64,000 nucleotides of DNA from a virus. Position numbers and translations under genes: made by a program. The stretch is taken from positions 3,578 through 67,577 of the IMG/VR virus record IMGVR_UViG_3300022932_000018; one strand, 5' to 3'. Shown piece after piece: positions 1,364 to 53,723 of this stretch (position 1 is its first letter; each line of letters begins with the position of its first letter). The notes beneath the pieces were generated by a model. That model saw nothing but the letters and a program-made list of their open reading frames with translations, was not told where the DNA came from and searched no databases.

Positions 1364-2191
1364 TCATTTTAAAAAACTAAGTAGCGAAATTTCTCCGGAC
1401 AAAACTTTATCCGCCCGGCTGTCAATAATGTCGTCAAACTTTGATTGGCAAAGTGCACCACATTCAGGAATTATTATTTCAGTGTCGCGGCCAGCTGTTG
1501 GCGATAGTTCATCCAGGAAGGTGCCATTGATGCAGCTGTGGCCGGCGGCTCTTTCTGCCGTAGCCATATTCTTGAAGTGCTGGGGAAAGTCCGTTCTGAT
1601 TTTATTCCAATATCCTTTGCCTCCTTTGGTACATCCAATGCAATTATTATTGTTGTAGCCGAGGCCATACATGGCCGGGATTTCAATTCCTGCAGTCTGA
1701 ATGATACCGGCGCACTCATTCTTGTCAAGCTGATTTTCTATGAGCGGGAATACTGGACGTGTATCAGGGAACTCCTGCAGGAAGCGGATAGCGCGGTTGA
1801 CCTGGCGTGTTTCACACTCAAATCCCCAAACCTGATAGGCAGATGGGAACAGCATTTCCACAGTACGCCTTACCTTCTTTTTCAGTTCCTCCGTACACCT
1901 GGCACCGTCCGGGCCATTAACGTAGCCAGTATCTTCAATGACTTCAAACTGGTCTTTGTAAATTCTGTTTTGGAACTGCTTTATCTCCTGTCCATACCAT
2001 CTCTCACAGTCTGCTTTGAATCGTAGAGTATCTGGATGGTGACTGTTGATATGGATGTAGCATAGCTCTACTTTTTTGAACATCTTCAGTGCAAGCCAGC
2101 ATGCAACAGCGGATGTTATTCCACCACTCCACCAAGCAATTACAGGCTTGTCAGTGACGACCTGTTCATTTTTGTAGTCTGGGAAAAGCAT
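1364..2191 (-). CDS. PAPS-reductase-like PP-loop protein with Cys cluster
   Basis: WWSGGITS PP-loop, CTEELKK and NNCIGCTKGG motifs. Confidence 0.75.
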   Translation of the reverse strand: MLFPDYKNEQVVTDKPVIAWWSGGITSAVACWLALKMFKKVELCYIHINSHHPDTLRFKADCERWYGQEIKQFQNRIYKDQFEVIEDTGYVNGPDGARCTEELKKKVRRTVEMLFPSAYQVWGFECETRQVNRAIRFLQEFPDTRPVFPLIENQLDKNECAGIIQTAGIEIPAMYGLGYNNNNCIGCTKGGKGYWNKIRTDFPQHFKNMATAERAAGHSCINGTFLDELSPTAGRDTEIIIPECGALCQSKFDDIIDSRADKVLSGEISLLSFLK

Positions 2192-2199
2192 GATGCAAG

Positions 2200-2307
2200 A
2201 ATCCCTGCTCAGGTTTGGCAGGCAGGCCTCCCCCGAGCAGGGATTAAAAATGAGTTATGAATGGACTGCCTTCCTTTCACCCGGTCCTTCCGGTGGTTGC
2301 AAAGATA
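2200..2307 (-). promoter_or_regulatory. Host-type promoter plus three-hairpin kissing-loop leader (copy A)
   Basis: TATCTTTG at 2307-2300. Hairpins at 2281-2293, ~2263-2274 and 2200-2245; loops AGGCAG/CTGCCT are complementary. Confidence 0.7.
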
Positions 2308-6765: not shown

Positions 6766-8973
6766 ATGTTTAGCCCAATAACTGTTGAAAAAGCGCGTGG
6801 CCAGGTCATAAACGTCCAGGGATTGGAATGTCATTTGCCTGCACGCGGATGGATATGGAACCCTTTTATCGGCAACAAGCGTGCTGATGGGAGTTTTGAA
6901 GGGGACTGGTATCGCGCTCAACACCCAAGTGTCCGGGGTGAAGGGACTACTGCAGGCGTATTCCGTCGGAGTACGGCAGAGTCAGAGAACTACTGGCAGC
7001 CAGATAGCCGGCTCTGGCTAAAGCAAAAGGACACTTTTGTTGAGGGCGAGTATTGGCGTTGGGAGCGGTGGGAGAAACAGCAGGAAGAAGAAAGAAAGAA
7101 AAAGCCCGATTACGAGCACCCAGAACTCCGGAAGTTCCACGAAACATTTGCCGGTAAGCCTGCACGCATTCAGACCTATGCAGACCTTGTGGCTTTCAAG
7201 ACCGAGATGTGGCTCTACCGTCTATCTGGATTCTGGTTTTCGAATAAAGGAGAAGCTACTTATATCACTGGTGCATACTGGTACTTCCTTTCTGTGTATC
7301 AGATGGATGTTGGCCTCCCCAAATACAAAGAGATTGACCGGGATTATTTCTACTTCTGGCAGTATTGCCTGGAAGACCCGTTGTGCTATGGCATGATTGA
7401 AATGACGCGCCGACGTCTTGGTAAAAGTTATCGTTGTGGCGCCATCGGTCTGGAAATGACATCGCGTAATGACCAGTTCAATATGGGCATCCAGTCGAAG
7501 TCGGATGAAGATGCGAAGAAAGCATTTAAGAAAACGGTAGTATCTCCATTCAGGAAGTTGCCGGCATTCTTTCAGCCGTTGTCGGACATCCCGCCATCCG
7601 GCAAGTCACCGACGTCAGCGCTCAAATTCCAGACCGGTAAAATGAGCACTGACGAAGACGAGCTGGAAAGCATGATCGACTTTGGCTCGTCCAGTACCGA
7701 CTACTACGATGGTCAAAAACTGGGCTTCTACTACCACGATGAAATCGGTAAGACTAAGCTGGTTGACGTGTTCGAGAGGTGGGACACAGTGAAGATGTGT
7801 TTGGTGGATGACCGTTCAAGAATAATAGGCAAGTCCATAAATACCACTACGGTGGAAGATATGGATAAGGGTGGTAAGCCGTTCCTTAAAATGTGGAAGG
7901 GGAGTGACCACAATAATCGCGGCGTAAACCGTGATGGCCGTCCGAATAAACAAACCAAGACAGGTCTTTACAGATTCTTCACACCAGCACAAAATACAAT
8001 CTTCATTGACAAGTGGGGCAGGCATGATCCGGTAAAAGGACTGCAGAAGATTGCTGATGATATTGATGCTCTCGATGGTGACCAGCGTGCAATTTCTCGC
8101 TACAAGCACAAGATGCCGACGTGTGAACGCGATGCCTTCCAGGCGGATGCTGACACCTGCGTAATGAGCCAGCCGGTCAAGATAAATGAAAGACTGACTG
8201 AGCTTACCTTATTGCAGACTCCTGTGTACCGTGTTGGCAATTTCCGGTGGAAAGACGGAGTCGTAGATAGCGAGGTTGAGTTTGTTGAAATGAACAACGG
8301 CAAGTTCATGGTGTGCGAACTTCCTATACCTGACCGGCGGAATAAGTTCCGCATGCGAAACCGCTCCAAGTGGCCTGACAATACGGATATGTACCTTGCG
8401 GGTATTGACCCCTTCGACTTCGCGCTGGTAAAAGCGGAGGACGAAAAGAAAATGTCAAAGGGTTCGCTCTGCATAAAGCGTCTTCCTCACCCAGCGCATG
8501 ATTCTAATTTTGAGAATGGCCCTGTTTGTCTTTATCTGAACCGTCCAAGCAATCCAGAAATATTTTATGAAGACTGCCTGATGGCCCTGTTCTTCTATGG
8601 CGCAATGTCGCTTACGGAAAACAACAAGGCAAACATATTCAACTACTTTGAAGACCGAGGCTACATTGAATACATGGCCTGGTACAAGGGGGAGCGCCGT
8701 GGTGTAACGAACACCGCGAACTCCCGAGGTGGTGGGGTCAATGGGCACATTGCTGCTATTACTGACGTATTTTTGTGCAATCACCTAGAAACAGTTGTCT
8801 TCCCCATTTTGCTTGAGCAGTGGTTGGCGTTCAACCCGCAAGCAACGACAGAATATGATGCTGCCATGGCGTTCGGGTATGCAGAAATGCTTGTAAAAGA
8901 CCCAAAGTTTAAGCCGGCAGACCCATCAAAGAGCCTTCCAAAAATCAGTGATTTTATAAGCTGGTACAAATAA
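6766..8973 (+). CDS. terL: Terminase large subunit
   Basis: Walker A RRLGKS, Walker B YYHDEIGK, nuclease AGIDPFD and C-terminal YDAAMA; crAss-like Y.TG..Y..L N-region. Confidence 0.92.
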   Translation: MFSPITVEKARGQVINVQGLECHLPARGWIWNPFIGNKRADGSFEGDWYRAQHPSVRGEGTTAGVFRRSTAESENYWQPDSRLWLKQKDTFVEGEYWRWERWEKQQEEERKKKPDYEHPELRKFHETFAGKPARIQTYADLVAFKTEMWLYRLSGFWFSNKGEATYITGAYWYFLSVYQMDVGLPKYKEIDRDYFYFWQYCLEDPLCYGMIEMTRRRLGKSYRCGAIGLEMTSRNDQFNMGIQSKSDEDAKKAFKKTVVSPFRKLPAFFQPLSDIPPSGKSPTSALKFQTGKMSTDEDELESMIDFGSSSTDYYDGQKLGFYYHDEIGKTKLVDVFERWDTVKMCLVDDRSRIIGKSINTTTVEDMDKGGKPFLKMWKGSDHNNRGVNRDGRPNKQTKTGLYRFFTPAQNTIFIDKWGRHDPVKGLQKIADDIDALDGDQRAISRYKHKMPTCERDAFQADADTCVMSQPVKINERLTELTLLQTPVYRVGNFRWKDGVVDSEVEFVEMNNGKFMVCELPIPDRRNKFRMRNRSKWPDNTDMYLAGIDPFDFALVKAEDEKKMSKGSLCIKRLPHPAHDSNFENGPVCLYLNRPSNPEIFYEDCLMALFFYGAMSLTENNKANIFNYFEDRGYIEYMAWYKGERRGVTNTANSRGGGVNGHIAAITDVFLCNHLETVVFPILLEQWLAFNPQATTEYDAAMAFGYAEMLVKDPKFKPADPSKSLPKISDFISWYK

Positions 8974-30534: not shown

Positions 30535-30565
30535 GGGTGCTTTACTTTATAGTACGTTCAAAGGT

Positions 30566-30595
30566 AAAAAGAAAGCCCGACGTGTGCCGGGCTTA
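30566..30595 (-). terminator. Intrinsic terminator after the giant gene
   Basis: AAGCCCGG-CACACG-TCGGGCTT followed by TCTTTTT on the - strand. Confidence 0.7.
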
Positions 30596-30597
30596 TC

Positions 30598-33500
30598 TTA
30601 TTTTCTGTACCGGCCTTTCCCGGATGTTGTGACCTGGAATTTGCTGCCGCCATACTTGACCTGCATCTTCTTCTTGCGAATCTGTTGGAGCTTGCGGTTG
30701 ATAGCAGACACATCGGCCTCGCTCACTCCGAGAAGGGCCATGCCGTCTACGAGGGCGCCGATAGTTGCAGCCTGGCGTTCGTTTGGTGCAATATCAACTC
30801 TGGTGACCTTCTGATTGAACATATTACCCTTGTACCTGTCCGTCTGCCCGGTGATGGCCATGCGTGCTTCCGAGCCAGCGTTTGCTGCTGTCTGGAGCGG
30901 CCCGCCAAACATACCCCACTGACCGTAATCGTACTCACCATACTTGGCAGGGTCGTAAACAGAGAAGAAGCCGGGCTCTTTCTCGCTGGCACCATTCATG
31001 CCTTTTATCAGGTAGTTGGAAAGCTCATTCAGCTTTGTCTGAGTGAAGCCGCCCATACCGGCGAAGAAGTAATCCGAGATAGAATTGGCTGCAAACTTCT
31101 GCAGGTTCTTCGCGGTATCTGTTTCTTCTGCGAATTTATCATCGTCGTCATCCCACATGCCCAGCATAGATGCTAGGCCGCGTGCGGCTGCCGTAGTGGC
31201 GATGCCTATCACAAATATCTTGACGGCATTGAAGATGGCTGCTTCGGCCATGGTTGCCGCAAGAGAACGGGCTGCCTCGGCTTTTACATTCTTGTTGCCA
31301 AAAAGCAGCTTCTGAGCGTCGTTGGTCATGCGTACCCGCTGGTTGGTAGCAAAGCCTGAGTATGGCAGGAATATGCGCAGCATGGTGCGTCCCCAGCCTC
31401 CCTTGCGGTACATCTGGCCCATGGACGACGCATCGTTGGCATTCTGGCTACGGCTGGTCATTTGCTCAGCGTATGCGGCTGCCTCCGCGTTCGGGCTGTT
31501 GTGTTCTTCTGCCCAATTGATGCTATCGATATCTACGCCTTGCTCTTTCAGGCTCTGCATGTAGAAAGCAAGCCATGAAGTACGAGCCACCTTTACGTCG
31601 GAATAAACCAGGGCAGCCATGGTAGCATCAGCAACTCGTTGACCGATTTTATCTACCTGGCCGAGTGTCCGCTGGAAGCTGTTGCCAAATTCGGTGCGGT
31701 CTACCCGGCTGAAATCTGTGTCCCTGTTGTAGCCGGCTTTTGTTGATCCACGCTGACCGATGTTGAACTGGTCGAACAGTGGCAGGTTGGTACCTATCTG
31801 CCATGCTTTAGGGAACAGTGAGAAGTCACTGCCCAGGTTGGCCATGGTGTTGCCGGCGACAGAAACGTACTGCTTTGCCAGCTGAGAGAAGGAGCCGAGT
31901 GCGATACGGGCCGCTTTGGCAGCAGCTATATTGGCACCCTTCTCAACCATTCTTTCAACTTGGCTTACTTGTGGTGTTTTACCACGCTGTGCGTCTGCGG
32001 CTGACGTGAGGGCTGTCTGAACAAGCTCTTTATTCTGAGGCGTACCGAATACAGTTTCAGCATTCTTGTTGTCAAGGAACATGCGAATCTGGGCCTTTGC
32101 CTTATTGGTTTCTACATCGTAGTTGGTTTCGTAGAACCGGTCGGCAGCTGCAGAATCGAAGTCAAGGTCGAGTACTGCATTCTGACCTGGCAGAACGAAG
32201 TACCGGCGCCGGCGGTTCTTGGTGCCGGCGGGCGTTTCGTCAATCTTGCGGCGGGAGAAGGTCTGGTCAAACATCGTGGATGCAGCAGCCTGGTCTTTCA
32301 CTCCGCGCAGCTTACTGTAAGTAATAGGCGTGTAGTTATTGACTTCCTCGAAAGGAATATTGCTGTATATCTCACTGTTTTCTGCAACGGTTTCTCTGCG
32401 GTCGGCGAACTGCTGTTGCCAGAACTCAACTATTTTCTGGTTGTCGGCGCCGTTCTCCATGGCAATCAGTTTGGCTTCTACCTCTGCCGGGCTGTTGGAA
32501 CCCTCAAGCAAAGCATTATAGGCGTCGCTGACGTACTTTCCTTTCTGGTTGTCGTTCTTGTCGCCACTGTTATTGAGTCTGTCAGCAGTCTGGGCAACGA
32601 GCCCCTTGATGCGTTCGAACTCTGCGGCGTCCTTCTCGGCACCTTCATTGAAATTCATCTGAGAAAGAGCGTAGACACCACGCATGACCTTGTTCTCCGC
32701 ATCCATCACGGCATCAGGCATGTTCTTTACCAGCTCCTCGTAGGCCTTTATAGCGTTGCTCTGTGTTTTCTGAGCACGCGCATGACCGTTGAACAACTCA
32801 GACTGGCCGGATAGGCGTTGAAGTTCTGCAGCTACACGGGTGTTCTTGGTGATAAATTCATTCAGCAGGTTGATGCTGGCAATCTCACCGGCCACAGCTT
32901 TTGCAATGCCGCTTTTCAGTTCAGCAGGATTTACACCGGAGTCCTTCATCAGCTGTATAAGATGGTCCATGTTTCTTTGGACGATGGACAATGCCGACAT
33001 ATCACCGGCATCCGTGAAGGAGTCGTTGTATGTGATGTTGTTTATTACATCGTTCAGCTTCACCAAGGCAGGCATTTCAAGGTCGGTAGTATCAATCTGG
33101 CGGATGTTGTCGAGCACTTCGGTTTCCTCGGCAGATAGGTTGCTGATATCGTAGTTGTCCAGGTCAATCAACTGGTCGTCTACGTAGGCTTTCATCAGCC
33201 TCAGACGTTCTTCTGCATTGGTAACGGCAGCGGCGGCACGGTCGTCAGCTATCTGAGCAAGCTGGTCGTCAATGGCTGCCTGTATATCTGCTGGAGATGC
33301 GGTTGCAGGGTCAATGGTGCCGGCTGCCACAAGGTCTGCGAATACCCGGTCACGGCGGCGTTGCTCCTGCTCTTTCTTGGCAACTTCCATTTCAGCTGCT
33401 GCAGATTGAACGTAGGCTTCGATGTCGGTGATAGTAGCCTGGTAGTCTGCGTTGGCGACAGTGCCGTTCTTTGCATTGGCTTTGGCGTTACTGATTGTGC

Positions 33501-36500
33501 TCAGCACGCGGTCAGCCATTGCCAGGTACTCGTCAAGGTTCGCAAGTACATCTGGTTTGATACGAAGGAATGCCTTTACGGCGTCAACATTGTTCGCAGC
33601 TTTCTGAACAGCTTTGGAGCGGACAGCAGCGCGTATTTTCTTGGCTACGGATTGGGCGTCTTTCAGCTTGGCATCGTACTCTGCATCCGCAAGTATCTTA
33701 TCGGTGTAGGTAATGAAAGCGTCGAGTTTGGCAGCGTTTTCTCCTACGGCAAGTCCACGCTTGATGATAGCAGCTACCTGCTTTGGCGTAACGGTGCCGG
33801 CTGCTTGTGCTGTTGCAAGGTGTTCCTTTATACGGTCGATGGCTGTTTCGAATGGAGCCTGCGCAATTGCTTTGCCCTGGCTGATTCCTTCTTTGCGGCC
33901 GCGACGTTCACCGGTAACCTCACCTTCCTGCTGACCCTGGGTACGGCCGGCTCTGAATCCTTCCAATGCTGCACGGGCTTCCATGCGGATTTGGTTCTTC
34001 AGGTCTGCCATGCCAGTGGTATCGGTACGGGTGGCGTTATTGATGGTCGTGCCAATGGAAGTCTTAGCCCGTGGCTTGACGTACTCGTTTACCAGCTCCT
34101 CGAACGCAGCTTGGTTGAAGATGCTGGCGTCGTGATTTGCCTTGATAGCACGCACGGCATCATTGATGGCTGCACGCTGGGTCTTGCCGGCGGTCTGTGC
34201 TTCGATTACTGCCCGGAATCCTTCTGCGATTGCAGCTGGTGTAAGGCCTATCCGGTCCAGTGCTTCCTGCCTGCGGGTGAACTCAACGTTTGGCTTTGCC
34301 TTGTCGAGTATCTGCTGTGCTACTTCTGGCCCTACCGTTGCGGCAAGTCCTCTCAGTATTGCAGTTTCGCTTGTGCCACGGGCGAGTTTCTTCTCAGCCA
34401 TCTTTACGAGCTCAGGGTCTATCTGCGGCGCGAGGGAATACATGGTCAGGCCATTCTTCTTGGAACGGGCAGACATGGATTCGGCAAAGCGAAGTGGTGA
34501 GAATACTTCGTCAGGATATACCTGGCTGATATAGTCGTTCAAAACTCCGTACATCTCTGCTACGGCGCCAGTCAGCTCATAGGTGCCTCGTCCTTTGTGA
34601 ACCAGTCCGCCAACGATGGCCTTGTCCGCTGCTGATATTCCTGCCGGGTTCTCCAGCATATCAATCATGATGCCTTCAGCGAAAGGTTCGGATGCGTTCT
34701 GGAATGCTTGCGTTTGCTCTACAAGGTCCAGCATGTTCTGGTACACATCGGGCGCTTTTGCTGCCACGAGTTCTACCATCTGCGAACCTCCAACCGAGTT
34801 GGTAATACGGGAAGCGAAGTCGCTGCTGTTGACGGATGAATAAACACCGGTGAGTTCTCCGGAATCCTCGTCGCTGGAACCCCGGCCGCGTTGCCCGGCT
34901 GTTTCTGCAGCAATGGCAATGCTTTCGTCAATGGCGTCGGCGCTCCGGTTCTGGGAGCGCTCTGCCCTGGCTGCTCTTGTCAGGGTGTTGGGAGCGTCGA
35001 TGATTTCCTTGATGCGTCTTGTCAGGCTGTTGGCAGAGCTGAGTTCTGCGAGGACTGCACGGCTGTATGATTGCAGGCTGATGTTGGCAAACTGCTGTGC
35101 GGTTACCTGGTTGAAGCCGGCTGATTTCTTGAGTGTATCCCAAAGCGATTTCAACCATGCGCTGAATCCCTTTCTGTTTTTCTGCGGGATATTCTGAGCT
35201 TCCTGTTCGATGGTCTGAGCGAGTATTTCCTCTGCGATGGCAGCACGGGCTTCGGACTTATCTTCTGCCTGTCCATATTCTATGGCATAACGTTGCCACA
35301 TGGCTACATCGGATGCGCTCATGCCAGCCGGAGCGGCCGGTTGTTGACCGTCCAGCAATGCAGAAGCATACTGATAGGCGTCTGTTTCCTTTGCAAGCGC
35401 TTCGCCACGGGCATATATGTCTGGAGCATTTACCCGTGCCCAGGCAGCCCATACATGGCCAAGCTCATGGATAGGTGTTGATGGGCTTGCTTCCTCCACG
35501 TTGATGAACATGGTATTGGAGCCAGCATCATACCACCCTTTCGGCGCCGTTTCTTCTGCGAAGGTTTCAGGCAGGAATTGCCGGGCAGATTCGTTGTCTA
35601 CGACGACAAGCGTTGGCTCACCCTTGAACTTGTTTTTGATGCGCTCATGCAGTGCCATTACGCCTTGGCGTGTCCAGCCGGCACGATTCATTGTCGCGTT
35701 GTCGGTGAAGATGTTCTGCGTGCCTGGGCGAACTTCAAACAGGTCTATTTCAGGGGCGGCTTCTTCTACTGGAACTGCTGTTTCTGCTGGGCTATTAGTT
35801 TGCGGAGTGTTTTGAACTTCGCGGCTAATAGCTTCTCTAACTTCTCCTGATAGGTCAATTTCACCTCTCCGGACTGCTTCGTAGTAGGCGTTCTCGAGGT
35901 CTTGCTGGTTGCCATATTCTTGGTTTAAGAGTTCTTTTTCTTTGGCTTGTAATTGCGCTTCTTCCTGTGCCATCACGATGTCGGCTATGCCATCGTTGAG
36001 TGGGAACCCTGTAAGTTGTTCAAACTTGTCTTCTGCGAGGCGCTGATTGCTAGAAGGGCGTGATCTTACTGCCTGGTCAACTCCGCCGGGGAACCGGTAC
36101 ATGAAATCGACAAGGTCTTGTGGAGTGATATTGAGGCCGTTGTTGCCGTCCATATCAGCACCATTCAAGTCAATAGCAATCTGGTCGAGGCTCGCCGCTT
36201 TCTGTCCCTTCTTTCCAATGTAATTCGCAGCGATGCCGCGATTCATATTGTTGCGGTCGCCGAACTGATTGAAAGAATCCTGCGTTGTGGTGAATCCACC
36301 CTGGTCTACGATTGCCTGCTCGATGGTGTCGAGCATTGCTGGCTCTTGCGGCATATTCCGCCAGATGGTCGCTATCTCAACAGGGTTGGTAGAGTTCTCG
36401 ATAATGGAAGCCTCATACTCCTGGCGGTTCACTCCGGCATCTGGTTGTGGTGCCAGAGCGCCTTGCAGGAAATTGTATTTGGCAGCGGCACCTTCGCGCT

Positions 36501-39500
36501 CTTGCTTGTTCGCAGGACGCTCGTTACCGGTATCAACGTTCCGAACAGTGAGGCCGGCCGGCGTATTCATGACGATGCTGTTACCAACGATGGCGTCCAC
36601 GAATGGCTGAATTGGTGGTGCGACAGGTTCCTCGGCTTGCTCGATAGTCTGCGCTTCAAGCTGGCCAAGTAAATCACCAAACTCAGGCGTGATTTCAAAG
36701 TTTGGTTCTGCTTCTTCCGCAACTACTGGTTCCGGCGTTGATTCAGATGGTGCTGCATTCAGTTGTTCCTCGGTTACTACGATGGGTTGGAACTCTCCTT
36801 CCGTGTCTGGGGTTTCTGCTACGGTGGGCTCAAGTACTGTAACTGTTTCCCCTGTGGTTACCGGATCCGCAATGACTTCCTGTGCTACTGGTGGAACTAC
36901 AATATTGTAAGCGCCCTCGGCCAGAGTAGATGGCACATTCTCGCCGCGCATCCTTTGCAGGGCATCCATCACTTCTTCTTTACTCCGGCCTTCATCTACC
37001 AGGCTACGGGTTGCAGCTACCATGGCACGCATGGCTGAGGTGGTAATTCCGGCATCCATTTCAGCTTCGCTTACCGGGCGATCGTTCTCTACCTCTGCAT
37101 CGTAAATATCACGGGCGGTAATGATGTCGATAGCGAAGTCAGATGTAGTGCCAAGCAGGTTGGGCTCTGCAGCATCAATAGTGGCATCGTGTTCTTCCTG
37201 TACGGCTACGGAAAGTTCGGGCGCCGTGAGAGGACGTGCAATGTCCATGGTTGTTTGTCCTGTTGCCAGTGCTGCAGCTATGCGCTTCTTGCCGTCGATT
37301 ATTTGACCGTCCTTTCCTATTACGACGGGATTCGTGTTGGCGGTAATTGACTGTGATGCCGGGGTTGAAGAAGCCTGAATGTAACCTCGAACCTCTGGGT
37401 CGTTTGCATACGGCGTGATATCTATGCTCTCCGTTGTGTAAGGTCCATTGTTCAAGATGGCAGAAGTCTGTGCGCCTCTTAGGCTGGCTGCTGGTGTGTA
37501 TCGTTGAGATATTGCCGCCATTTCTACGCCAGAAACTGTGCGTCCACGAAGGTCTGTGCCTTCTTCAATTTGCTTTATCGCAAGTGTAGACGCGGCAGCT
37601 TTTGCCTGCAAGTCTTGTACTTGTGCCTCTACTGCCTGTCCGGCCTCGCGAGTGAAAATGCCGTTGGCATCACGGGCCATCAGCACCTGAGTTTTCTGCC
37701 CGGTATTTACGTCAGTTATTTCTTCGTACCGGATTTCAGGCGCAATAGCTGCAAGTGCTGCGGCTGTTTCCTGGAGTCGGGCTTGTTCAATTCCGTACTG
37801 CACAGCTTTTGGCCCTACCAGAGCCTGTCCGCCCTTATCCTTTGGCTGGATTGCTCTTGCTACAAAAGGTTCTACCCGGCCAATAAAATTCTGAATCTGC
37901 GAGGCCTGTTCAGGCGTCATTCTTCCGGACTGCAGCTGCTCAGTGATGGATTGCCGGAAGTTTTCAGGGCTTGCCATCGCCTGGTAGATTGCTGCAGCCT
38001 GGCTGGTTGGTGCCTGCGTGCCGTGTTGCCCGATGCTAGACATCATGCCGCCGGCTACGGTCCCAACAAGTCCTTCATGGGCGGCTTGTTCTACCGCGCC
38101 TTTCCAGTCGAATGGTTCGGTGCGGCCTGCGTCATTCCAATCTTGGTAGCTGTCTGCTCCAGAACCAAAAACTTCTTCTACGCCTTCGCCAAGCGATTGC
38201 CCGAGCCGAGGACTTACATTTTGCTTGATGAACTGGCCCAATTTCTGAACACGGCCTGTCGCAATTACTTCGTCAGCACTGTTGACAATTCGATTTGAAA
38301 GATTACTCCCGGCACCTCTCCGGGCAAGCGGGTTTGCAAGGCCTTCAATCAGGATATTGACCGACGCTCTTTGTGCTGCCTTTGCAGATGCTTGCTGTGG
38401 GGTATATCCGGAATCAAGTGCCTGTTTGAAATAGCTGGCATAGATAGTCGGGTATGCGTAGGCAGTAGTATTTATTACGTTATCGATGTAGCGTGTTGCT
38501 ACACGGGCTGGCATAGACTGGAGCGTAGCGGCAAGGCCATCAAATGCTTTTTGCGATAGCGTGCCTTCATTAGCAAGGGCACCGCGCAAAGCTGCTGATG
38601 TAGCACCTCGTTGAGCGGCATTTGCAGCTGGCGCCCAATTACCTATGCTTGCACCTTTAGAAAGAGCACCGAGCCCTACTGATGGTCCAAGAAACTCGCC
38701 TCCTGTGCGGGTGGCGGTTCCAAGGATCGTGTCGAGATACGCAAAGGGATTGTTAGTAAGCGTTGCTGTTGTGAGGTCGGCTTCATTGGTTGGTCGGTTG
38801 CCGCCAAGATATTGTTCGCTTCCAGCCAGCCATTGGGCATGCGTATTGGCCACATTCCTTGCGGCACTTTCGTTGCCCGTCGCATCATACAGAGGCTCCA
38901 ATAGTCCGCGTCCGAGGAAAGCCCCGAAGTTTGACGATGCACGCAAGCCTTCTTTTGCAGCTCCCCAGATGTAGCCAACAGGTTTCAGTACGCCGCCGGC
39001 ACCGTCGTGCAAGAAATCTGTGATGTCTTGATTGTAGTTGTTGGCTTGCTGAAATTCATTCTTCTTGCCCTGCACAATCGCATCGGCAGCTTGTTTAAAT
39101 TTCTTTTCGTCGCCGCCGGCCAATTCAATTACTTCACGCTTAAAAGTGGGGTTGAATTGTTTTGTTTCCTGGTTGGTGTAAACAAGGTCTTTGCTGACTG
39201 GCGTTTTCAGGTCTGTGAATCGTGTAGCGTTGCTCTGAATGCCACGCAAAGCAGCATCTGAAGGGTCGCCAACGATGGAACGGAACCGGTCGTCGTCATA
39301 ATCAGGGAGTGCCTTTGCGGCTTTCTGTTGTGCCTTTTGCTGGCCGTAACGGGCGGTGGCTGCCAATGTATTTTGATATGCCTTACGGTCGGCATCGCTT
39401 ATCCCTGCTGCAAATTCAGTTGCCGGCTTTGCGGCTGCCGCAACCTGGCTGTTGAATGCTTGTTGGTATTGCTTCAGCTGCTGTTGCCGTTGCGCTTCTG

Positions 39501-39678
39501 CGGCGCGTGCCTGCTGGATAGCTGGAGTGTTTGAAAGTGCTTGCTGTTCGGCAGCTACATTGCCAATAATCCCTTGCTCTATCTGTGTGCGTTGGTCGCC
39601 AAAAGAAGTAGGGAAAGGGATTGCTTGCGGAGCCGGTTGTGACGGCTGTTTCTTGGTGTCTTTATCTTTTGCTCCCAT
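30598..39678 (-). CDS. Giant (3026 aa) polyvalent virion/ejection protein with ParB-like and zincin (HExxH) domains
   Basis: NPVVIGKDGQIIDGKKRIAA (ParB/Srx-like); KGWYD...INVE...TPIHELGHVW...EEILA (MPTase-like); G/A-rich membrane-like segments. Confidence 0.75.
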   Translation of the reverse strand: MGAKDKDTKKQPSQPAPQAIPFPTSFGDQRTQIEQGIIGNVAAEQQALSNTPAIQQARAAEAQRQQQLKQYQQAFNSQVAAAAKPATEFAAGISDADRKAYQNTLAATARYGQQKAQQKAAKALPDYDDDRFRSIVGDPSDAALRGIQSNATRFTDLKTPVSKDLVYTNQETKQFNPTFKREVIELAGGDEKKFKQAADAIVQGKKNEFQQANNYNQDITDFLHDGAGGVLKPVGYIWGAAKEGLRASSNFGAFLGRGLLEPLYDATGNESAARNVANTHAQWLAGSEQYLGGNRPTNEADLTTATLTNNPFAYLDTILGTATRTGGEFLGPSVGLGALSKGASIGNWAPAANAAQRGATSAALRGALANEGTLSQKAFDGLAATLQSMPARVATRYIDNVINTTAYAYPTIYASYFKQALDSGYTPQQASAKAAQRASVNILIEGLANPLARRGAGSNLSNRIVNSADEVIATGRVQKLGQFIKQNVSPRLGQSLGEGVEEVFGSGADSYQDWNDAGRTEPFDWKGAVEQAAHEGLVGTVAGGMMSSIGQHGTQAPTSQAAAIYQAMASPENFRQSITEQLQSGRMTPEQASQIQNFIGRVEPFVARAIQPKDKGGQALVGPKAVQYGIEQARLQETAAALAAIAPEIRYEEITDVNTGQKTQVLMARDANGIFTREAGQAVEAQVQDLQAKAAASTLAIKQIEEGTDLRGRTVSGVEMAAISQRYTPAASLRGAQTSAILNNGPYTTESIDITPYANDPEVRGYIQASSTPASQSITANTNPVVIGKDGQIIDGKKRIAAALATGQTTMDIARPLTAPELSVAVQEEHDATIDAAEPNLLGTTSDFAIDIITARDIYDAEVENDRPVSEAEMDAGITTSAMRAMVAATRSLVDEGRSKEEVMDALQRMRGENVPSTLAEGAYNIVVPPVAQEVIADPVTTGETVTVLEPTVAETPDTEGEFQPIVVTEEQLNAAPSESTPEPVVAEEAEPNFEITPEFGDLLGQLEAQTIEQAEEPVAPPIQPFVDAIVGNSIVMNTPAGLTVRNVDTGNERPANKQEREGAAAKYNFLQGALAPQPDAGVNRQEYEASIIENSTNPVEIATIWRNMPQEPAMLDTIEQAIVDQGGFTTTQDSFNQFGDRNNMNRGIAANYIGKKGQKAASLDQIAIDLNGADMDGNNGLNITPQDLVDFMYRFPGGVDQAVRSRPSSNQRLAEDKFEQLTGFPLNDGIADIVMAQEEAQLQAKEKELLNQEYGNQQDLENAYYEAVRRGEIDLSGEVREAISREVQNTPQTNSPAETAVPVEEAAPEIDLFEVRPGTQNIFTDNATMNRAGWTRQGVMALHERIKNKFKGEPTLVVVDNESARQFLPETFAEETAPKGWYDAGSNTMFINVEEASPSTPIHELGHVWAAWARVNAPDIYARGEALAKETDAYQYASALLDGQQPAAPAGMSASDVAMWQRYAIEYGQAEDKSEARAAIAEEILAQTIEQEAQNIPQKNRKGFSAWLKSLWDTLKKSAGFNQVTAQQFANISLQSYSRAVLAELSSANSLTRRIKEIIDAPNTLTRAARAERSQNRSADAIDESIAIAAETAGQRGRGSSDEDSGELTGVYSSVNSSDFASRITNSVGGSQMVELVAAKAPDVYQNMLDLVEQTQAFQNASEPFAEGIMIDMLENPAGISAADKAIVGGLVHKGRGTYELTGAVAEMYGVLNDYISQVYPDEVFSPLRFAESMSARSKKNGLTMYSLAPQIDPELVKMAEKKLARGTSETAILRGLAATVGPEVAQQILDKAKPNVEFTRRQEALDRIGLTPAAIAEGFRAVIEAQTAGKTQRAAINDAVRAIKANHDASIFNQAAFEELVNEYVKPRAKTSIGTTINNATRTDTTGMADLKNQIRMEARAALEGFRAGRTQGQQEGEVTGERRGRKEGISQGKAIAQAPFETAIDRIKEHLATAQAAGTVTPKQVAAIIKRGLAVGENAAKLDAFITYTDKILADAEYDAKLKDAQSVAKKIRAAVRSKAVQKAANNVDAVKAFLRIKPDVLANLDEYLAMADRVLSTISNAKANAKNGTVANADYQATITDIEAYVQSAAAEMEVAKKEQEQRRRDRVFADLVAAGTIDPATASPADIQAAIDDQLAQIADDRAAAAVTNAEERLRLMKAYVDDQLIDLDNYDISNLSAEETEVLDNIRQIDTTDLEMPALVKLNDVINNITYNDSFTDAGDMSALSIVQRNMDHLIQLMKDSGVNPAELKSGIAKAVAGEIASINLLNEFITKNTRVAAELQRLSGQSELFNGHARAQKTQSNAIKAYEELVKNMPDAVMDAENKVMRGVYALSQMNFNEGAEKDAAEFERIKGLVAQTADRLNNSGDKNDNQKGKYVSDAYNALLEGSNSPAEVEAKLIAMENGADNQKIVEFWQQQFADRRETVAENSEIYSNIPFEEVNNYTPITYSKLRGVKDQAAASTMFDQTFSRRKIDETPAGTKNRRRRYFVLPGQNAVLDLDFDSAAADRFYETNYDVETNKAKAQIRMFLDNKNAETVFGTPQNKELVQTALTSAADAQRGKTPQVSQVERMVEKGANIAAAKAARIALGSFSQLAKQYVSVAGNTMANLGSDFSLFPKAWQIGTNLPLFDQFNIGQRGSTKAGYNRDTDFSRVDRTEFGNSFQRTLGQVDKIGQRVADATMAALVYSDVKVARTSWLAFYMQSLKEQGVDIDSINWAEEHNSPNAEAAAYAEQMTSRSQNANDASSMGQMYRKGGWGRTMLRIFLPYSGFATNQRVRMTNDAQKLLFGNKNVKAEAARSLAATMAEAAIFNAVKIFVIGIATTAAARGLASMLGMWDDDDDKFAEETDTAKNLQKFAANSISDYFFAGMGGFTQTKLNELSNYLIKGMNGASEKEPGFFSVYDPAKYGEYDYGQWGMFGGPLQTAANAGSEARMAITGQTDRYKGNMFNQKVTRVDIAPNERQAATIGALVDGMALLGVSEADVSAINRKLQQIRKKKMQVKYGGSKFQVTTSGKGRYRK

Positions 39679-41945: not shown

Positions 41946-41987
41946 GCTATTATTTTTGCGCTGCGGCTTCTGTTGGGGTGGTGTGGG

Positions 41988-42272
41988 TCATGGGAGGGCG
42001 GGAATAGGCTGGAATAAAAGGGGATATGTCATAATGAATGTTGATGGGTTAAGCCACCATCTGTCATTTTCACAGTAAACAAGTTCTATCACGCCCAACG
42101 GGTACAAGGCCAATATCTTTGTCCCATCCTTTGGTGCCTGCTCAATAGGCAACCACTGCGGCTGTGCGGCGAGGTAGCCTTGCTGATACCCTTGCCGGAG
42201 CAGCATAGAATGTTCGCCTTCGCCGGGGTATAGTGCATTTGCACGTTCATGTGCTTTATCTTCTACTTTCAT
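41988..42272 (-). CDS. DUF551-like protein
   Basis: WLPIEQAPKDGT motif. Confidence 0.65.
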   Translation of the reverse strand: MKVEDKAHERANALYPGEGEHSMLLRQGYQQGYLAAQPQWLPIEQAPKDGTKILALYPLGVIELVYCENDRWWLNPSTFIMTYPLLFQPIPALP

Positions 42273-42682
42273 TTCTGTGTGTTTTTGTGGGTGGATAGGG
42301 CGGCGCGTCCTGCATCAATGAGAGATGATTTCGCTCCCGATGATTCCAATGCATCCAATACGTTCTCCAACGCCTCCACCAGCGGCTGCATGTGGGAGGT
42401 AGCGACTTCAGCGCACGCGTAAGCTATATTTGTAGGCCTGAAAGGGGCTAATGATATCTTTGCTATTGCCTGTTCCATCCGCTCCACCAACCCTTCATCC
42501 GTCTGCGGCTGGCTGGTGGTGAGGGCGGCATATATTTCCGCTCCTTGTATCATCGCATCTTCTTGGAAGTGATGCGGGCCTTTTACGCAGGCTTTCTTTA
42601 TCGCGGCCAATACCGCTTCTGGTAGGTTGTTCATGTTAGGGGGTGGGGGTGGTTTATGCCGTGAGGCGGCGGTTAGCATCAT
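42269..42682 (-). CDS. Hypothetical protein (true start probably ~42634)
   Basis: LVEALE...GRAAL C-terminal phage motif. Confidence 0.5.
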   Translation of the reverse strand: MMLTAASRHKPPPPPNMNNLPEAVLAAIKKACVKGPHHFQEDAMIQGAEIYAALTTSQPQTDEGLVERMEQAIAKISLAPFRPTNIAYACAEVATSHMQPLVEALENVLDALESSGAKSSLIDAGRAALSTHKNTQK

Positions 42683-43064
42683 CTAGTGTTATCTTTCCAG
42701 TAGTCAGCAAGTGAATAAGGAAATCCCCAGCAGAAACATTCATAGCCTTGCTTGCAAAGCCTGTGAATGGCTTTTCTACCAAGTATGAAAACCCGCACTC
42801 GTAAGACCTTTTGCCGATGCTTTGGCTAAATCCAAACATACCGCAAGCAGCCATGAGTTCTGCTATTGTAAATGCTGAAAAGAACTCGCCAACAGTTGTC
42901 CCGTCATGACTTGTCGAGTCTGCAATCCTGAGATGTGTACCATCTATAACGCTATAGTAGATGTTGCCGTTATTATCATAACTAAGATGAGTTTCTTGCT
43001 GCAATCCTAGTGCTTTTAGCTTTCTTGCCTGCTCCAGCGTGCAGACTTGTTGTTCTATTTTCAT
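42654..43064 (-). CDS. Hypothetical protein, paralog of 54842-55231
   Basis: MKIEQQVCTLEQARKL...AFTIAEL; ATG 43064. Confidence 0.65.
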   Translation of the reverse strand: MKIEQQVCTLEQARKLKALGLQQETHLSYDNNGNIYYSVIDGTHLRIADSTSHDGTTVGEFFSAFTIAELMAACGMFGFSQSIGKRSYECGFSYLVEKPFTGFASKAMNVSAGDFLIHLLTTGKITLDDANRRLTA

Positions 43065-43117
43065 ACTTTCCAAATTTACCCCCACGCCTGCTATTAACAG
43101 GGCGCAAGGTTGTGAGA

Positions 43118-45515: not shown

Positions 45516-47012
45516 TTAAAAAGGAGCGTTTTGCTCTTGTTTGTTTGATTCTGTGATGTCGCGGCGGATGCCGGCTTGTGGGTTTTGGTGTTGCCAGTCT
45601 ATTTCTTTCTGGTAATCTGTGAATTGGTTGTGCTGTTTTACGAATTTTGCTCGGAACGCACCGACCTCGCCAAGCCTCCACTTCGCTATGTCGATAATCG
45701 CGTCTGTGTCGTCGAAGGTCATGTCGGTTCCGCCAATGTTCATTTCAGGACACTTGTGTTGTGAGGGCCGGAAGACGAAAATAACGCCGTCTGCATCCTG
45801 TTCAATTGCTCCTGACTCTCGCAAATCCGACAAGGCATAAAGTCTTGCGGCCTTACCCTTTTCCATTCTATTGAGTTGAGAGAGTGCAATTATTGGTATT
45901 TCTAGGTCCATTGCCAGGCCTTTCAGTTCCTTGCTCACAAAGTTGACTTCTTCTTCTCTGGTACCGAACTTTTTGCCGGCTCCGCGAACCAGCTGAATAT
46001 AGTCAATGAACAAAGCCTGTATGCCGTACTTCTTCTTCATTGTTCGTGCGGTGGCTTTAAGCTCGATGATGTTGATACCTCCTTTGTCGTAGATATACAA
46101 TGGTATTTGGCGGACCTCATTCAGAATAGTCCCTTCTAGCTCTGTCCACTTTGCGTCACTGAATTTACCACCTCGGACGACCTTTATTTCTTCCTCAAGG
46201 ATGCGCGAAAGTATTTTCCAGACAAGTTGTTTGTCCTTCATTTCAAGAGAAAAGAAGCCTACCGGAGACCCTGACCGTGCGATGCTTTCTGCGATATTCA
46301 GCGCTAAGCTGGTTTTCCCTTCTCCAGTGCCTGCGGCAAGAACAATCAAGTCCGGTGCTGTAAGGCCTAGTGTTATTTCGTCAAGTTTGGTGAGGCCGGT
46401 TTTCAGACCCAGCATGTTGGTGTTGTTGTTCCTGGCTTCACGCATTTCCATTATGGTTGGCAAGATGGAGCCGGCAAGGCTTTTAATGGTTCCGGTGCGG
46501 ATGTGGTCATTGATGCCTGACATTGCCGTCTGAGTCGCTTCCATAAGGTCGAATACGTCCTCGCTGTCTTCATAGGCTTTTGCGATTGTTTCTCCCGAAA
46601 TTCGGATAAGCTCTCTCATCATGAACTTCTGCATGATCAGCATCGAATGTGTTTCAGCATGAGCCCCGGAAACAACGGATGAAGTCAGCTTTACCAGATA
46701 GGGCGCCCCGCCGACAATTTCAAATTCACCTGCTGCTCTCAGTTCCTCAATCACCGTGAGCATGTCGATTGGCTGCCCTTTATTCACCAATCTGAGTATA
46801 GCAGCATAAATTTTCTGATTAGCGTCTACATAGAAGCATTCTGGCTCTCTGAGTATTCGGATTACCGTGTCGGCTGCATTCTTTTCAAGCAATATACACC
46901 CGAGTACTGCTTCTTCTACATCTGGGAGCTGGGGCGGAATCCTGCCGTATACCAAAGTGTTCAATTGAGGTTTGTTTCTGGTATCGAAGTCTTTTTTTGT
47001 ATTGAGTGCCAT
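45516..47012 (-). CDS. dnaB: Replicative DNA helicase
   Basis: PPQ..DVEEAVLG, Walker A AGTGEGKT, FFSLEM, IDYIQL, LSQLNR and SDLRESGAIEQDAD motifs. Confidence 0.95.
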   Translation of the reverse strand: MALNTKKDFDTRNKPQLNTLVYGRIPPQLPDVEEAVLGCILLEKNAADTVIRILREPECFYVDANQKIYAAILRLVNKGQPIDMLTVIEELRAAGEFEIVGGAPYLVKLTSSVVSGAHAETHSMLIMQKFMMRELIRISGETIAKAYEDSEDVFDLMEATQTAMSGINDHIRTGTIKSLAGSILPTIMEMREARNNNTNMLGLKTGLTKLDEITLGLTAPDLIVLAAGTGEGKTSLALNIAESIARSGSPVGFFSLEMKDKQLVWKILSRILEEEIKVVRGGKFSDAKWTELEGTILNEVRQIPLYIYDKGGINIIELKATARTMKKKYGIQALFIDYIQLVRGAGKKFGTREEEVNFVSKELKGLAMDLEIPIIALSQLNRMEKGKAARLYALSDLRESGAIEQDADGVIFVFRPSQHKCPEMNIGGTDMTFDDTDAIIDIAKWRLGEVGAFRAKFVKQHNQFTDYQKEIDWQHQNPQAGIRRDITESNKQEQNAPF

Positions 47013-47551
47013 TACAGGAGTCGTTTGTCGGGTGCGTTGATTTGCTGAGGTTGTGAAGGTGTTTTGTTTGCTGACCAGTCATTGTTCGCTTGCCACTTAA
47101 GAAGGCGCAGTCTGAGTTCCCATGTCTTTTCAAGTTCAAATCGCATTTTCTTACCGCTGTGGCTTTTTTCACGCCAGTAGTCATAGAAGGGACGGACAAT
47201 CTTTGCTCCAAATTCTGTGACGTGTGGCACAAGGCTTTCGTAAAATGCTTTCTCTCGTTCTTCGACTGGAAGTGAAGCGTCGGCCTTGTTTTTCGGCGCT
47301 CTTTTCTCTCGTTCCTGCTCAAGTCGCTGGTTGCGTAGGAGCCCATCTTCACCAACTTTAAATTTTGCCATCACGATGGCTGTATTTTCAAATCCTGTTA
47401 TAAGTTGGAGAGCCTGTGGGTCATTTGGCAGCGCTCCCTTATCCCACTGTTCACATAGTAGCCGGATATATGCTCCGACCTCCTCTGGCTTCATCCTGGC
47501 TGTTCCGAGGATGAAGTCAGATACATTTAGCGCGAAGGATGCGAGCTTCAT
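47012..47551 (-). CDS. DUF1376/YdaU-like replication initiator
   Basis: SDFILGTARM..EEVGAYIRLL..QW N-domain; FYDYW.E...KMRFELEKTW C-domain; adjacent to dnaB. Confidence 0.8.
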   Translation of the reverse strand: MKLASFALNVSDFILGTARMKPEEVGAYIRLLCEQWDKGALPNDPQALQLITGFENTAIVMAKFKVGEDGLLRNQRLEQEREKRAPKNKADASLPVEEREKAFYESLVPHVTEFGAKIVRPFYDYWREKSHSGKKMRFELEKTWELRLRLLKWQANNDWSANKTPSQPQQINAPDKRLL

Positions 47552-47559
47552 AAAACAAT

Positions 47560-47673
47560 AATCCCTGACGGTTCAGGCGAGCAGGCCATCCCCGTCAGGG
47601 ATTGTAAATAAGTTAATTGAACCTATCTGCTCATAGGTGCCAATGCCGATCCTTTCGGCTTGGTGCAAATGTA
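47560..47673 (-). promoter_or_regulatory. Host-type promoter plus three-hairpin kissing-loop leader (copy B)
   Basis: TACATTTG at 47673-47666; loops GAGCAG/CTGCTC; homologous to 2200-2307. Confidence 0.7.
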
Positions 47674-48888: not shown

Positions 48889-48923
48889 TTTATTTGGGGA
48901 TTACGGTGTGGTTGTGGAGCATG

Positions 48924-49319
48924 TTAGAATAGTGGCTGGATGCCTTTTTTAGAGTTGATAGTTTGTTGTGCATTGGCGCGGCGCATAGGGCCGTCCAACT
49001 TGTTGTGACAGCGTTGGCACAGGGCTTGCAGGTTTTCGTCGCGGCAATCCATAGGGTCGGGATTATCAATGTGGGCTATGGTCAAGACAATTTTGAACGG
49101 CGGCCGCTTCAGCGCTTTCTCGAGCTCATTTTCGTCATCAGACGGCATATACCCGCCCGCAATATCTTCCACGGTGTAAAAGTTGCCTGATTTGAGCCGC
49201 CAACCTTCTCGCCCATTATCTATGCCGCACCGCTCACACTTATTGCCAGCACGGGCCAAAATTCGTGGCCTTATCTCCGTTTTCCAGCTTGTCGGGTATT
49301 TGCTGTAATCGCACGGCAT
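48924..49319 (-). CDS. HNH-fold protein
   Basis: CERCG, VLTIAHID and NLQALCQRCHN motifs. Confidence 0.85.
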   Translation of the reverse strand: MPCDYSKYPTSWKTEIRPRILARAGNKCERCGIDNGREGWRLKSGNFYTVEDIAGGYMPSDDENELEKALKRPPFKIVLTIAHIDNPDPMDCRDENLQALCQRCHNKLDGPMRRANAQQTINSKKGIQPLF

Positions 49320-49320
49320 T

Positions 49321-49584
49321 TTACAGTTGCTTTAAAAATTCGTGAACTGATTGGGATGGCCTTTCGGTAGTATCGCGTCCCCACCAGCCAAAAGGGCTAT
49401 GAGAGTAATACTTCCGATTGCCGTTGGGCTTTCGTATAGTAGGCCAAAGATGCTTGAGAAGGGTTGTCAACTCCTCTACCGTCCCATCATTCACGACGGC
49501 GGATTTGCCGTCGCGCAGGTCTTGGATTGTGAATACAGGGTCGTTGCGATGCAGGATGGCTGGTGGTGTTCTGCGGTGTGTCAT
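49321..49584 (-). CDS. Hypothetical protein
   Basis: ATG 49584 directly after the upstream stop. Confidence 0.5.
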   Translation of the reverse strand: MTHRRTPPAILHRNDPVFTIQDLRDGKSAVVNDGTVEELTTLLKHLWPTIRKPNGNRKYYSHSPFGWWGRDTTERPSQSVHEFLKQL

Positions 49585-49585
49585 G

Positions 49586-53619: not shown

Positions 53620-53648
53620 AAAAAAGCCCAGCAGGATCTGGGCTTTTG
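53620..53648 (-). terminator. Intrinsic terminator
   Basis: AAAAGCCCAG-CAGGAT-CTGGGCTTTT with a flanking A-run. Confidence 0.75.
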
Positions 53649-53723
53649 TGTAAGGGAATGAGGAAAGCATTCGTCCTACTGCTTGTAAGGTTGACTGCAA
53701 AGATAGAATCATTCCTGATAAAT

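Follow-up and report, generated by a model that had tools for sequence, protein, structure and literature searches.

We find that a 64-kb window of viral DNA carries two homologous minus-strand leaders, copy A at 2307-2189 and copy B at 47673-47549, each containing two hairpins with exactly complementary loops, and that a third copy, copy C, with a third set of complementary loops, is present in another phage. The window is the whole stretch analysed here: positions 3,578 to 67,577 of the 67.6-kb linear IMG/VR record IMGVR_UViG_3300022932_000018, a record ~65% complete that we call G000. The RNA structure of the leader is well supported. The leader is a portable cassette of putative promoter and structured leader that moves among unrelated phages and heads unrelated genes, and it probably sets the expression level of the gene behind it. 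The reading that we favour, at a confidence that is even and no higher, is that it acts as a self-contained, cis-acting dosing attenuator and start-site gate.

Structure of the leader and covariation among three copies

The two leaders share one order of elements: a TAnnTTTG box; three hairpins (P1, P2 and a long P3), with a 17-nucleotide (nt) A/U-rich linker (J2/3) preceding P3; 8 nt; and an ATG. In copy A, the box TATCTTTG (2307-2300), a putative Bacteroidota sigma-A -7 promoter box, is followed by P1, CCGG-AAGGA-CCGG (2293-2281), the predicted 5'-terminal hairpin; by P2, GGA-[AGGCAG]-UCC (2274-2263), with its loop, L2, at 2266-2271; by the A/U-rich 17-nt J2/3 (2262-2246), which holds the conserved word UAACUNAUUU (listed as TAACTCATTT) at 2257-2248; by P3 (2245-2200), which comprises a 14-bp lower stem, a purine-rich internal loop and an apical GGC-[CUGCCU]-GCC; and by the 8-nt spacer CUUGCAUC and the ATG (2199-2189, the ATG occupying 2191-2189). 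In copy B, the putative -7 box TACATTTG (47673-47666) is followed by P1, GCCGA-AAGGA-UCGGC (47659-47645); by P2, ACCUAU-[GAGCAG]-AUAGGU (47638-47621), with L2 at 47627-47632; by the 17-nt J2/3 (47620-47604), with UAACUUAUUU (listed as TAACTTATTT) at 47615-47606; by P3 (47603-47560), which comprises a 12-bp lower stem, the internal loop GGAU/UGAA and an apical GGC-[CUGCUC]-GCC; and by the 8-nt spacer AUUGUUUU and the ATG (47559-47549, the ATG occupying 47551-47549). The loop of P3, L3, is the exact complement of L2 in each copy (CUGCCU at 2220-2225 in copy A; CUGCUC at 47579-47584 in copy B). An initial annotation of the stretch had listed the boxes, P1, P2, the shared words, P3, the 8-nt spacer and the ATG, and every one of these is present, letter for letter, at its minus-strand coordinates.

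The three-hairpin fold is both the minimum-free-energy structure and the centroid for A and B (RNAfold), with fold z-scores of -3.20 for copy A (1 of 200 shuffles as stable) and -5.27 for copy B (0 of 200). When the loops are shuffled with their composition preserved, ~1.6-1.8% of the shuffles for each copy give loops that are complementary over all 6 nt. Within the window, the shared words TAACTYATTT..AATCCCTG and AATCCCTG..CAGGGATT are unique to the two leaders, with 0 occurrences expected (100 shuffles). Among 22 intergenic regions folded on both strands, a loop-loop match of at least 6 is found in the two leaders and, apart from these, in a single A/U-rich 38-nt loop; and among the 29 TAHHTTTG boxes of the window, the two leader boxes alone have a loop-loop pair downstream. 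An extension of the kissing helix into its flanks was rejected, being present (10/12, by eye) in copy A only and not in copy B.

Copy C is located at 7082-7202 of locus L040, within the complete 50-kb phage record G001. Its parts are the box TATATTTG, P1 (GCGA-AAGGA-UCGC), P2 (GUUGU-[GGACAG]-ACAAC), UAACUAAUUU, a P3 with GGC-[CUGUCC]-GCC, 6 nt and an ATG. The kissing loops of copy C are exact complements in a third set of letters, and its P3 has 80-90% identity to those of A and B. With B and C as its input, a covariance model retrieves A at E 7e-21, which bears out the homology of A and B claimed in the initial annotation.

In a model-guided alignment of A, B and C, comprising three sequences only and fitted to the structure, 97.8% of cells are paired and both sides change in 11 of 32 pairs: 2 of 4 in P1 (100% paired), 5 of 6 in P2, 3 of 6 in the kissing helix, and 1 of 13 in lower P3. 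The observed covariation was reached by 0 of 500 shuffles, and sliding the partners lowers pairing to 26-46%. Because the loop-loop pairing is outside the model, the covariation of the kissing helix is unbiased. In particular, a lone A-U pair of the kissing helix shifts over three positions (AGG/CCU, GAG/CUC, GGA/UCC), while the CAG/CUG half is constant in the three copies. As had been proposed for A and B, their two loop differences are compensatory, and the covariation support for a loop-loop pseudoknot is further strengthened by copy C, an independent variant in another phage. Since the kissing letters differ between copies in one genome, only their complementarity appears to be selected. 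Within P3, the lower 8 bp and the purine-rich internal loop are invariant in A, B and C, as are the AAGGA loop, UAACUNAUUU and, counted on the alignment, the 17-nt length of the linker; a G-U pair is present at alignment columns 75-98 in A and C.

The search for further copies consisted of exact-pattern scans of viral, metagenome and species-genome sets, from which three distinct variants were obtained; diverged family members may exist beyond the reach of such scans. In viral contigs, the pattern AATCCCTG..CAGGGATT matched at least 108 stretches, and blastn of 113 loci that include these identified L040 as the sole homologue; a stricter P3 pattern matched L040 only. In metagenome contigs, AAGGA..TAACTNATTT..AATCCCTG matched seven stretches, three carrying a copy of A, B or C and four being chance matches. 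The metagenome copies of A, B and C (contigs L124/L125 and L126) are identical to the originals from -7 box to ATG, with 2 differing bases directly after the box in the L124 copy of A. Other matches were rejected: the three to TAACTYATTTNNAATCCCTG in viral contigs, none with hairpins, and the one to AAGGA..TAACTNATTT..AATCCCTG in species genomes, in a Bacilli metagenome-assembled genome, are due to chance, and the pattern AAGGAYCG..TAACTNATTTNNAAT matched L040 and two chance stretches, which the model rejected. The model from B and C retrieved nothing beyond the leaders in the four records searched or among the other pattern matches.

A putative promoter box and a portable cassette

G000 is a tailed phage whose plus strand carries the terminase, portal, capsid and tail genes, those for replication, recombination, HNH and integrase being on the minus strand. 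Relatives of its terminase and of the DUF1376 protein encoded behind copy B are present in phages of Flavobacterium, Cellulophaga, Tenacibaculum, Riemerella and Bacteroides, which points to a Bacteroidota host. In Bacteroidota, the -7 box for the primary sigma factor is TAnnTTTG, with T-12, A-11, T-8, T-7, T-6 and G-5, and with H rather than G at the two free positions (passages of PMC6847099 and PMC9723704). The boxes of A and B both obey this TAHHTTTG rule, and a TAHHTTTG start is common to all copies of the family and to two non-homologous look-alike leaders described below. From the indicated host and the match to TAnnTTTG we infer a Bacteroidota -7 promoter box in the first conserved octamer and a 5'-terminal position of the leader, a point absent from the initial annotation. 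Transcription by the host polymerase would begin ~5 nt past the G of the box and would yield a minus-strand RNA with a ~105-115-nt 5' leader, and P1 would begin ~1-4 nt from the predicted 5' end (-7 box rule); the median leader in a flavobacterium is 24 nt (excerpt of PMC9723704). No host-type antisense promoter was found, in that no TAnnTTTG box is present on the plus strand within or beside either leader, a search that covers promoters of the host type only.

The leaders A, B and C stand ahead of three unrelated genes. Copy A precedes the gene of a 275-aa PAPS-reductase-domain protein (1364-2191, minus strand; PF01507, E 2.9e-9; phrog_424, E 1.2e-39; NCBIfam matches sub-threshold only). Copy B precedes the gene of a 179-aa DUF1376 (YdaU-like) 'primosomal' protein (47012-47551, minus strand; PF07120, E 8.1e-9; phrog_9327/3992, 'primosomal protein'; phrog_19415), which is followed by the gene of a DnaB-type replicative helicase (45516-47012, minus strand; PF03796, E 7.7e-70; PF00772; phrog_19) and then by a DNA methyltransferase gene. 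These matches agree with the initial annotation as to both downstream genes, the PAPS_reduct-domain gene behind A and the 'primosomal' gene, followed by dnaB, behind B. Copy C precedes an HNH endonuclease gene, behind which are the genes of a primase-helicase and of a replication initiator unlike that of G000. In protein-anchored searches, the DUF1376 protein, of which the protein database holds only eight relatives, led to one locus (L006) and the PAPS-reductase protein to one locus (L007); DnaB and terminase led to no loci.

G000 and G001 are otherwise unrelated: neither terminase nor DnaB searches connect them, and their terminase and replication genes are different. A blastp comparison of all open reading frames (ORFs) of the two records identified few small proteins in common: a MazG-like pyrophosphatase (86% identical), some proteins of unknown family, and two tail-fibre segments. 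There is no regulator candidate among these common proteins, of which the best-conserved is the pyrophosphatase and the others are without a family match. In G000, the MazG-like pyrophosphatase, the best-conserved protein common to both leader phages, is a 118-aa protein encoded at 49586-49942 (minus strand; phrog_5658, E 3e-59).

Comparison with a 97%-identical phage (L124/L125) locates the borders of the cassette. Specifically, homology ends exactly at the 5' edge of each box (at 47676 for copy B): upstream of the boxes that phage has unrelated DNA, with 936 nt in place of 2308-2810 and ~555 nt in place of 47677-47809. Three DNA runs confirmed both the mosaic junction and, in the relative, an identical leader B. 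Leader B has zero differences from the relative, whereas the surrounding block is 97.2% identical, which hints weakly at constraint. Upstream of copy B, the 404-aa ORF has only 84% identity to its counterpart in L124/L125, with flanks 96-97% identical. Elsewhere, G000 and L040 share patches of 24-108 nt that are 95-100% identical (41956-42002, 42126-42170, 42615-42649, 43059-43115, 48898-48929, 49317-49359 and 49480-49587); the three that were read lie at gene junctions with diverged flanking genes and look like conserved junction or linker sequences of mosaic phages.

Possible modes of action

Given that the copies precede different proteins, and with no evident regulator in common, an encoded protein is unlikely to be an autoregulator, and the simplest reading is action through host machinery. 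In the dosing attenuator that we favour, the leader would act in cis, with host machinery only. P3 with its U-containing tail would serve as an intrinsic but leaky terminator, and within the translation start region it would also sequester positions -9 to -54; the L2-L3 kissing complex would tie the tip of P3 to the 5' part of the leader; and, through the fixed-length linker, the kissing complex would set the degree or speed of closure of the P3 base and, with it, the share of polymerases (and ribosomes) entering the gene. In this scheme, termination at P3 and the direction of the kissing effect are inferred from the features that follow.

P3 is terminator-like: its stem has 12-14 bp and is G+C-rich, with A's before it and U's after it, and the tail AUUAUUGUUUU of copy B speaks for such a role. 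The order of elements is promoter, hairpin, gene, so transcripts from the box must pass P3. This is the opposite of the insulating order, terminator then promoter, that is present at 30535-30597 (minus strand), where a stem AAGCCCGGC..GUCGGGCUU with the tail UCUUUUU runs straight into TACCTTTG, followed by an unstructured 25-nt leader. By our own count, the helices P2, kissing helix and P3b, the internal loop, and P3a would together stack 29, 31 and 31 pairs in the three copies. With a helical rise of ~2.8 angstrom per pair, the stack measures ~81-87 angstrom, a distance that a 17-nt strand spans only when nearly extended. In the three sequences available, this suggests a taut geometry, which could keep the base of P3 partly open.

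Two look-alike leaders, non-homologous to A, B and C, have a box, a 5' hairpin, an A/U-rich spacer, a long 3' hairpin, a U tract and an ATG. The first is at 2820-2934 of L006, the sole viral locus with a relative of the C-terminal half of the DUF1376 protein, and comprises TATCTTTG, a long 5' hairpin (tip GUGGUAG), a small middle hairpin, a G+C-rich hairpin (loop CUACCAC) and the tail UUUUUCUAUUUU, followed by the ATG of a 119-aa protein and then by DnaB. The second is in Flavobacterium phage 11b, a cultured phage (L131; record positions 33623-33740), and comprises TATATTTG, a hairpin with the loop CGGGCAGG, an A-rich spacer, a long hairpin with an apical CCUGCCCG and the tail AUUUUUAUUUU, followed by the ATG of gene 62, which precedes the homologous gene 63. 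The loop complementarity of 7-8 letters was reached in 45 of 20,000 loop shuffles for L006 (p 0.002) and in 25 of 20,000 for 11b (p 0.001). The tails of both look-alikes are of the canonical terminator type. A blastn search of leader B, the L006 leader and the 11b leader against cultured phages gave nothing useful.

Several observations weigh against the dosing attenuator. The P3 tails are AUUCUUGCAUC (A), AUUAUUGUUUU (B) and AUUUCCUAUAU (C), of which those of A and C are poor U tracts, and all are weaker than the U runs of the evident terminators of G000 (UUUCUUUUU at 30535-30597 and UUUUUUUAUU at ~53610-53640). A terminator scan left P3 as a whole uncalled, its loop limit of 8 excluding P3 by construction, and its one call near copy B is a 5-pair sub-hairpin within the 3' arm of P3, tailed by GATTATTGTT. 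Inspection by eye revealed no alternative antiterminator pairing, and the centroid is the three-hairpin fold. A translational role is at least as compatible with the constant 6-8-nt distance from P3 to the ATG, and the invariance of the lower 8 bp of P3 and of UAACUNAUUU, in three sequences only, could equally reflect recognition by a factor or recent spread. Such a leader is missing from four of six further homologous gene contexts (Riemerella CRP5, LoVEphage, and the fecal phage fragments MT839942 and MT837034). It is missing also from the 69%-identical PAPS-reductase homologue in L007, which has a plain terminator upstream. This last case bears as well on the link between replication and PAPS reductase that had been proposed from the two leaders: the two genes are under the same type of leader and may be controlled alike, and a specific functional link is no more than conjectural.

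With no alternative pairing and a single dominant fold, a regulated switch is not evident. As a whole, we consider doubtful the reading in which P2-P3 kissing decides between a stop at P3 and read-through in response to a cue (e.g. Mg2+, a nucleotide-pool metabolite, temperature, or titration by an RNA with the same 6-nt code), in which the private loop codes AGGCAG, GAGCAG and GGACAG prevent cross-pairing, and in which the leaders and their look-alikes form a widespread, undescribed class of portable attenuators of Bacteroidota phages. For the cis-regulatory RNA of the initial annotation, structure and homology hold; the switch, attenuation, and antisense or protein target that it had envisaged did not emerge, and no host-type antisense promoter, conserved leader peptide or alternative fold was found.

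That the leader is purely a translational gate is, in our estimate, unlikely. In this reading, P3 occupies the region that Bacteroidota ribosomes need unstructured, and entry of the 30S subunit would be activated or limited by the kissing pseudoknot, which could, for instance, bring the A/U-rich linker next to the start codon at the P3 base, in the way that a pseudoknot activates repZ/repA translation in IncI-alpha/IncB plasmids. Initiation in Flavobacterium johnsoniae depends on structure around the start, being tuned by structure at -20 to +20, and Shine-Dalgarno sequences are absent there (passages of PMC6847099). The spacing from P3 to the ATG is 8, 8 and 6 nt in A, B and C, before unrelated genes (12-13 nt from hairpin to ATG in L006 and 11b); the U tracts of A and C are weak; and the units behind B and C are those of replication initiators, a position shared with the plasmid leaders (part of PMC8053102). 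Against a translational gate stand the position of the partner of L2 in the P3 apical loop, at a distance of >20 nt from the AUG and not beside the start site; the strong terminator tails of the look-alikes; the lack of a host-type antisense promoter on the plus strand near either leader; and the alignment itself, which holds no ORF common to A, B and C within the leader and thus no conserved leader peptide. As a separate candidate, a conserved upstream ORF was rejected: the ORF at 2255-2500 ends in the linker of copy A and has no counterpart in B or C.

A docking site for a trans-acting factor is improbable. Such a site would be either an antitermination RNA of the nut/put type or an operator for a repressor or antiterminator that reads AAGGA, UAACUNAUUU and the base of P3, with the kissing loops as a scaffold. 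The invariance of the single-stranded words and of the lower P3 stem, set against the freely covarying P1 and P2 stems and kissing letters, is what this reading would predict, as is the presence of two copies in one genome, each directly behind a promoter box and followed by genes of DNA metabolism. Also in its favour, a shared factor could not be reading the kissing letters, which are not the same from copy to copy. The few proteins common to both leader phages include no regulator candidate, which leaves room for a host factor, and no boxA/boxB-like consensus was found, by comparison with the general consensus and with no model applied. A DNA operator was a poor fit and was rejected, as its half-sites would be 28-30 bp apart with a covarying interior.

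Still less probable is a role as an RNA stability or processing element, or as a stand-alone small RNA. In the former, the 5' hairpin would protect the message, and the quasi-continuous P2/kissing/P3 helix would be cut by a double-strand RNase; in the latter, the ~105-nt terminated leader would itself be the product. The predicted position of P1, ~1-4 nt from the 5' end, the 29-31 stacked pairs of P3, kissing helix and P2, and the existence of a separate unit of promoter, short RNA and terminator at 53608-53705 are in keeping with these roles; the tight link to the start codon in all copies argues instead for a role in cis. The separate unit, a candidate small-RNA unit at 53594-53705 (minus strand), comprises a TATCTTTG box and, after ~65 nt, a strong terminator with the stem GCCCAG/CUGGGC and the tail UUUUUUUAUU; a second box, TACATTTGCGCCAAG, follows the terminator immediately and resembles the box region of leader B. 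A small RNA from 53608-53697 acting in trans on leaders A and B was rejected, since its duplex energy is no better than that of shuffles (p 0.07 and 0.23).

A role in DNA only, as a PeSL-like junction for module exchange or as a single-stranded DNA hairpin signal for a primosome or origin, has very little probability. In its favour, homology to the close relative breaks exactly at the 5' edge of the leader, with different modules upstream; other short 95-100%-identical patches lie at gene junctions of G000 and G001; PeSLs are composite promoter/terminator motifs at exchange points (passages of PMC4122927); and B, C and both look-alikes abut replication genes. Against it, homology for recombination needs no compensatory changes, whereas the stems and kissing loops covary while remaining paired; copy A is not beside replication genes; and a minus-strand RNA fits the promoter box, the orientation and, in A and C, the G-U pair at alignment columns 75-98. 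The behaviour as a recombination junction is real, and it may coexist with an RNA function, as in PeSL cassettes.

Relation to known systems and other features of the phage

A match to a known Rfam family would, by the initial annotation, have removed the novelty of the leader. Rfam 15, with its riboswitch, ribozyme, leader, Flavo-1 and other families, has 0 matches at the gathering score in the whole window, and at E up to 10 the three 3-kb loci centred on A, B and C have seven weak matches, none overlapping the leader (~1501-1618 of each locus).

In function, the leader would be most like the kissing-loop terminator leader of the guanidine-IV type. In the guanidine-IV riboswitch (mepA motif), the loop of an upstream hairpin kisses the loop of the terminator hairpin and hinders full closure of the terminator, and the length of the linker sets the competition (excerpts of PMC11611296). 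The leader likewise has a kissing loop between an upstream hairpin and a terminator-like hairpin, with a 6-bp L2-L3 pairing in three of three variants and compensatory changes in 3 of its 6 pairs. The guanidine-IV motif is held in Rfam, and the leaders have no sequence or model match to it, there being no Rfam match. The genes also differ, being guanidine exporters in guanidine-IV and PAPS_reduct, DUF1376/DnaB and HNH genes here. Moreover, the loops of the leader are fully complementary 6-mers whose letters differ per copy, there is no evident ligand pocket, and the U tracts are weak in two of three copies.

The position of B and C before replication genes resembles that of the IncI-alpha/IncB rep leaders (repZ, repA), in which a structured leader precedes the replication initiator and a hairpin loop pairs downstream to control initiator synthesis (part of PMC8053102). 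Copy A is unlike these in standing before a PAPS-reductase-like gene. In the IncI-alpha/IncB leaders, as reportedly described by Asano and by Praszkier, the partner is beside the ribosome-binding site, a leader peptide must be translated, and an antisense Inc RNA competes for the loop, whereas here the partner is the P3 apical loop, and neither a conserved leader ORF nor an antisense promoter of the host type was found. On account of these differences in sequence model, gene association, leader peptide and antisense RNA, the leader is a member of neither the guanidine-IV nor the IncI-alpha/IncB system.

PeSL cassettes of T4-type phages are like the leader in being short composite motifs of promoter and stem-loop, repeated, at the borders of swapped modules (passages of PMC4122927). 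Here, there are two copies in G000 and one in G001, and the replacements of 2308-2810 and 47677-47809 begin at the box. PeSLs are terminator/promoter composites without tertiary loop-loop pairing, whereas the leader has the promoter box first, three hairpins and a covarying kissing pair. Phage lambda nutL/nutR and HK022 putL/putR are pairs of homologous structured RNA sites downstream of early promoters that govern operons that include replication genes, and the HK022 put sites act in cis without a phage protein. Compared with nut and put, the leader shows no evident boxA/boxB or put-like consensus as generally known, G000 has no N-like protein identified, and the leader has its own terminator-like hairpin and kissing pseudoknot.

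The leader is thus of a known kind, that of leader RNAs acting through a terminator-like hairpin and a kissing loop, and what is new is a family that is outside Rfam and undescribed in the literature searched: no description of such a leader in Bacteroidota phages was found in the open-access literature. Gene regulation in Bacteroidota phages is little known, and their hosts use unusual promoters and no Shine-Dalgarno sequence. This compact, self-contained kissing-loop device travels from phage to unrelated phage, and the genes behind it serve replication, DNA modification and nuclease functions; if the favoured reading is true, it would represent a new way for phages to dose or time expression with host machinery only, and it could serve as a portable expression part for Bacteroidota. 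It yields clean predictions for loop mutants versus compensatory mutants, for swaps of the loop code and for changes in the length of the linker.

A tRNA or tmRNA reading was rejected, ARAGORN having found 0. Among the other features of G000, between the replication and tail genes is a pair of neighbouring ORFs without any Pfam or PHROG match, one of 3026 aa (30598-39678, minus strand) and one of 543 aa. A tyrosine-integrase-like gene is present at 60070-60948 (minus strand; phrog_1, E 3.5e-21), so G000 may be temperate.

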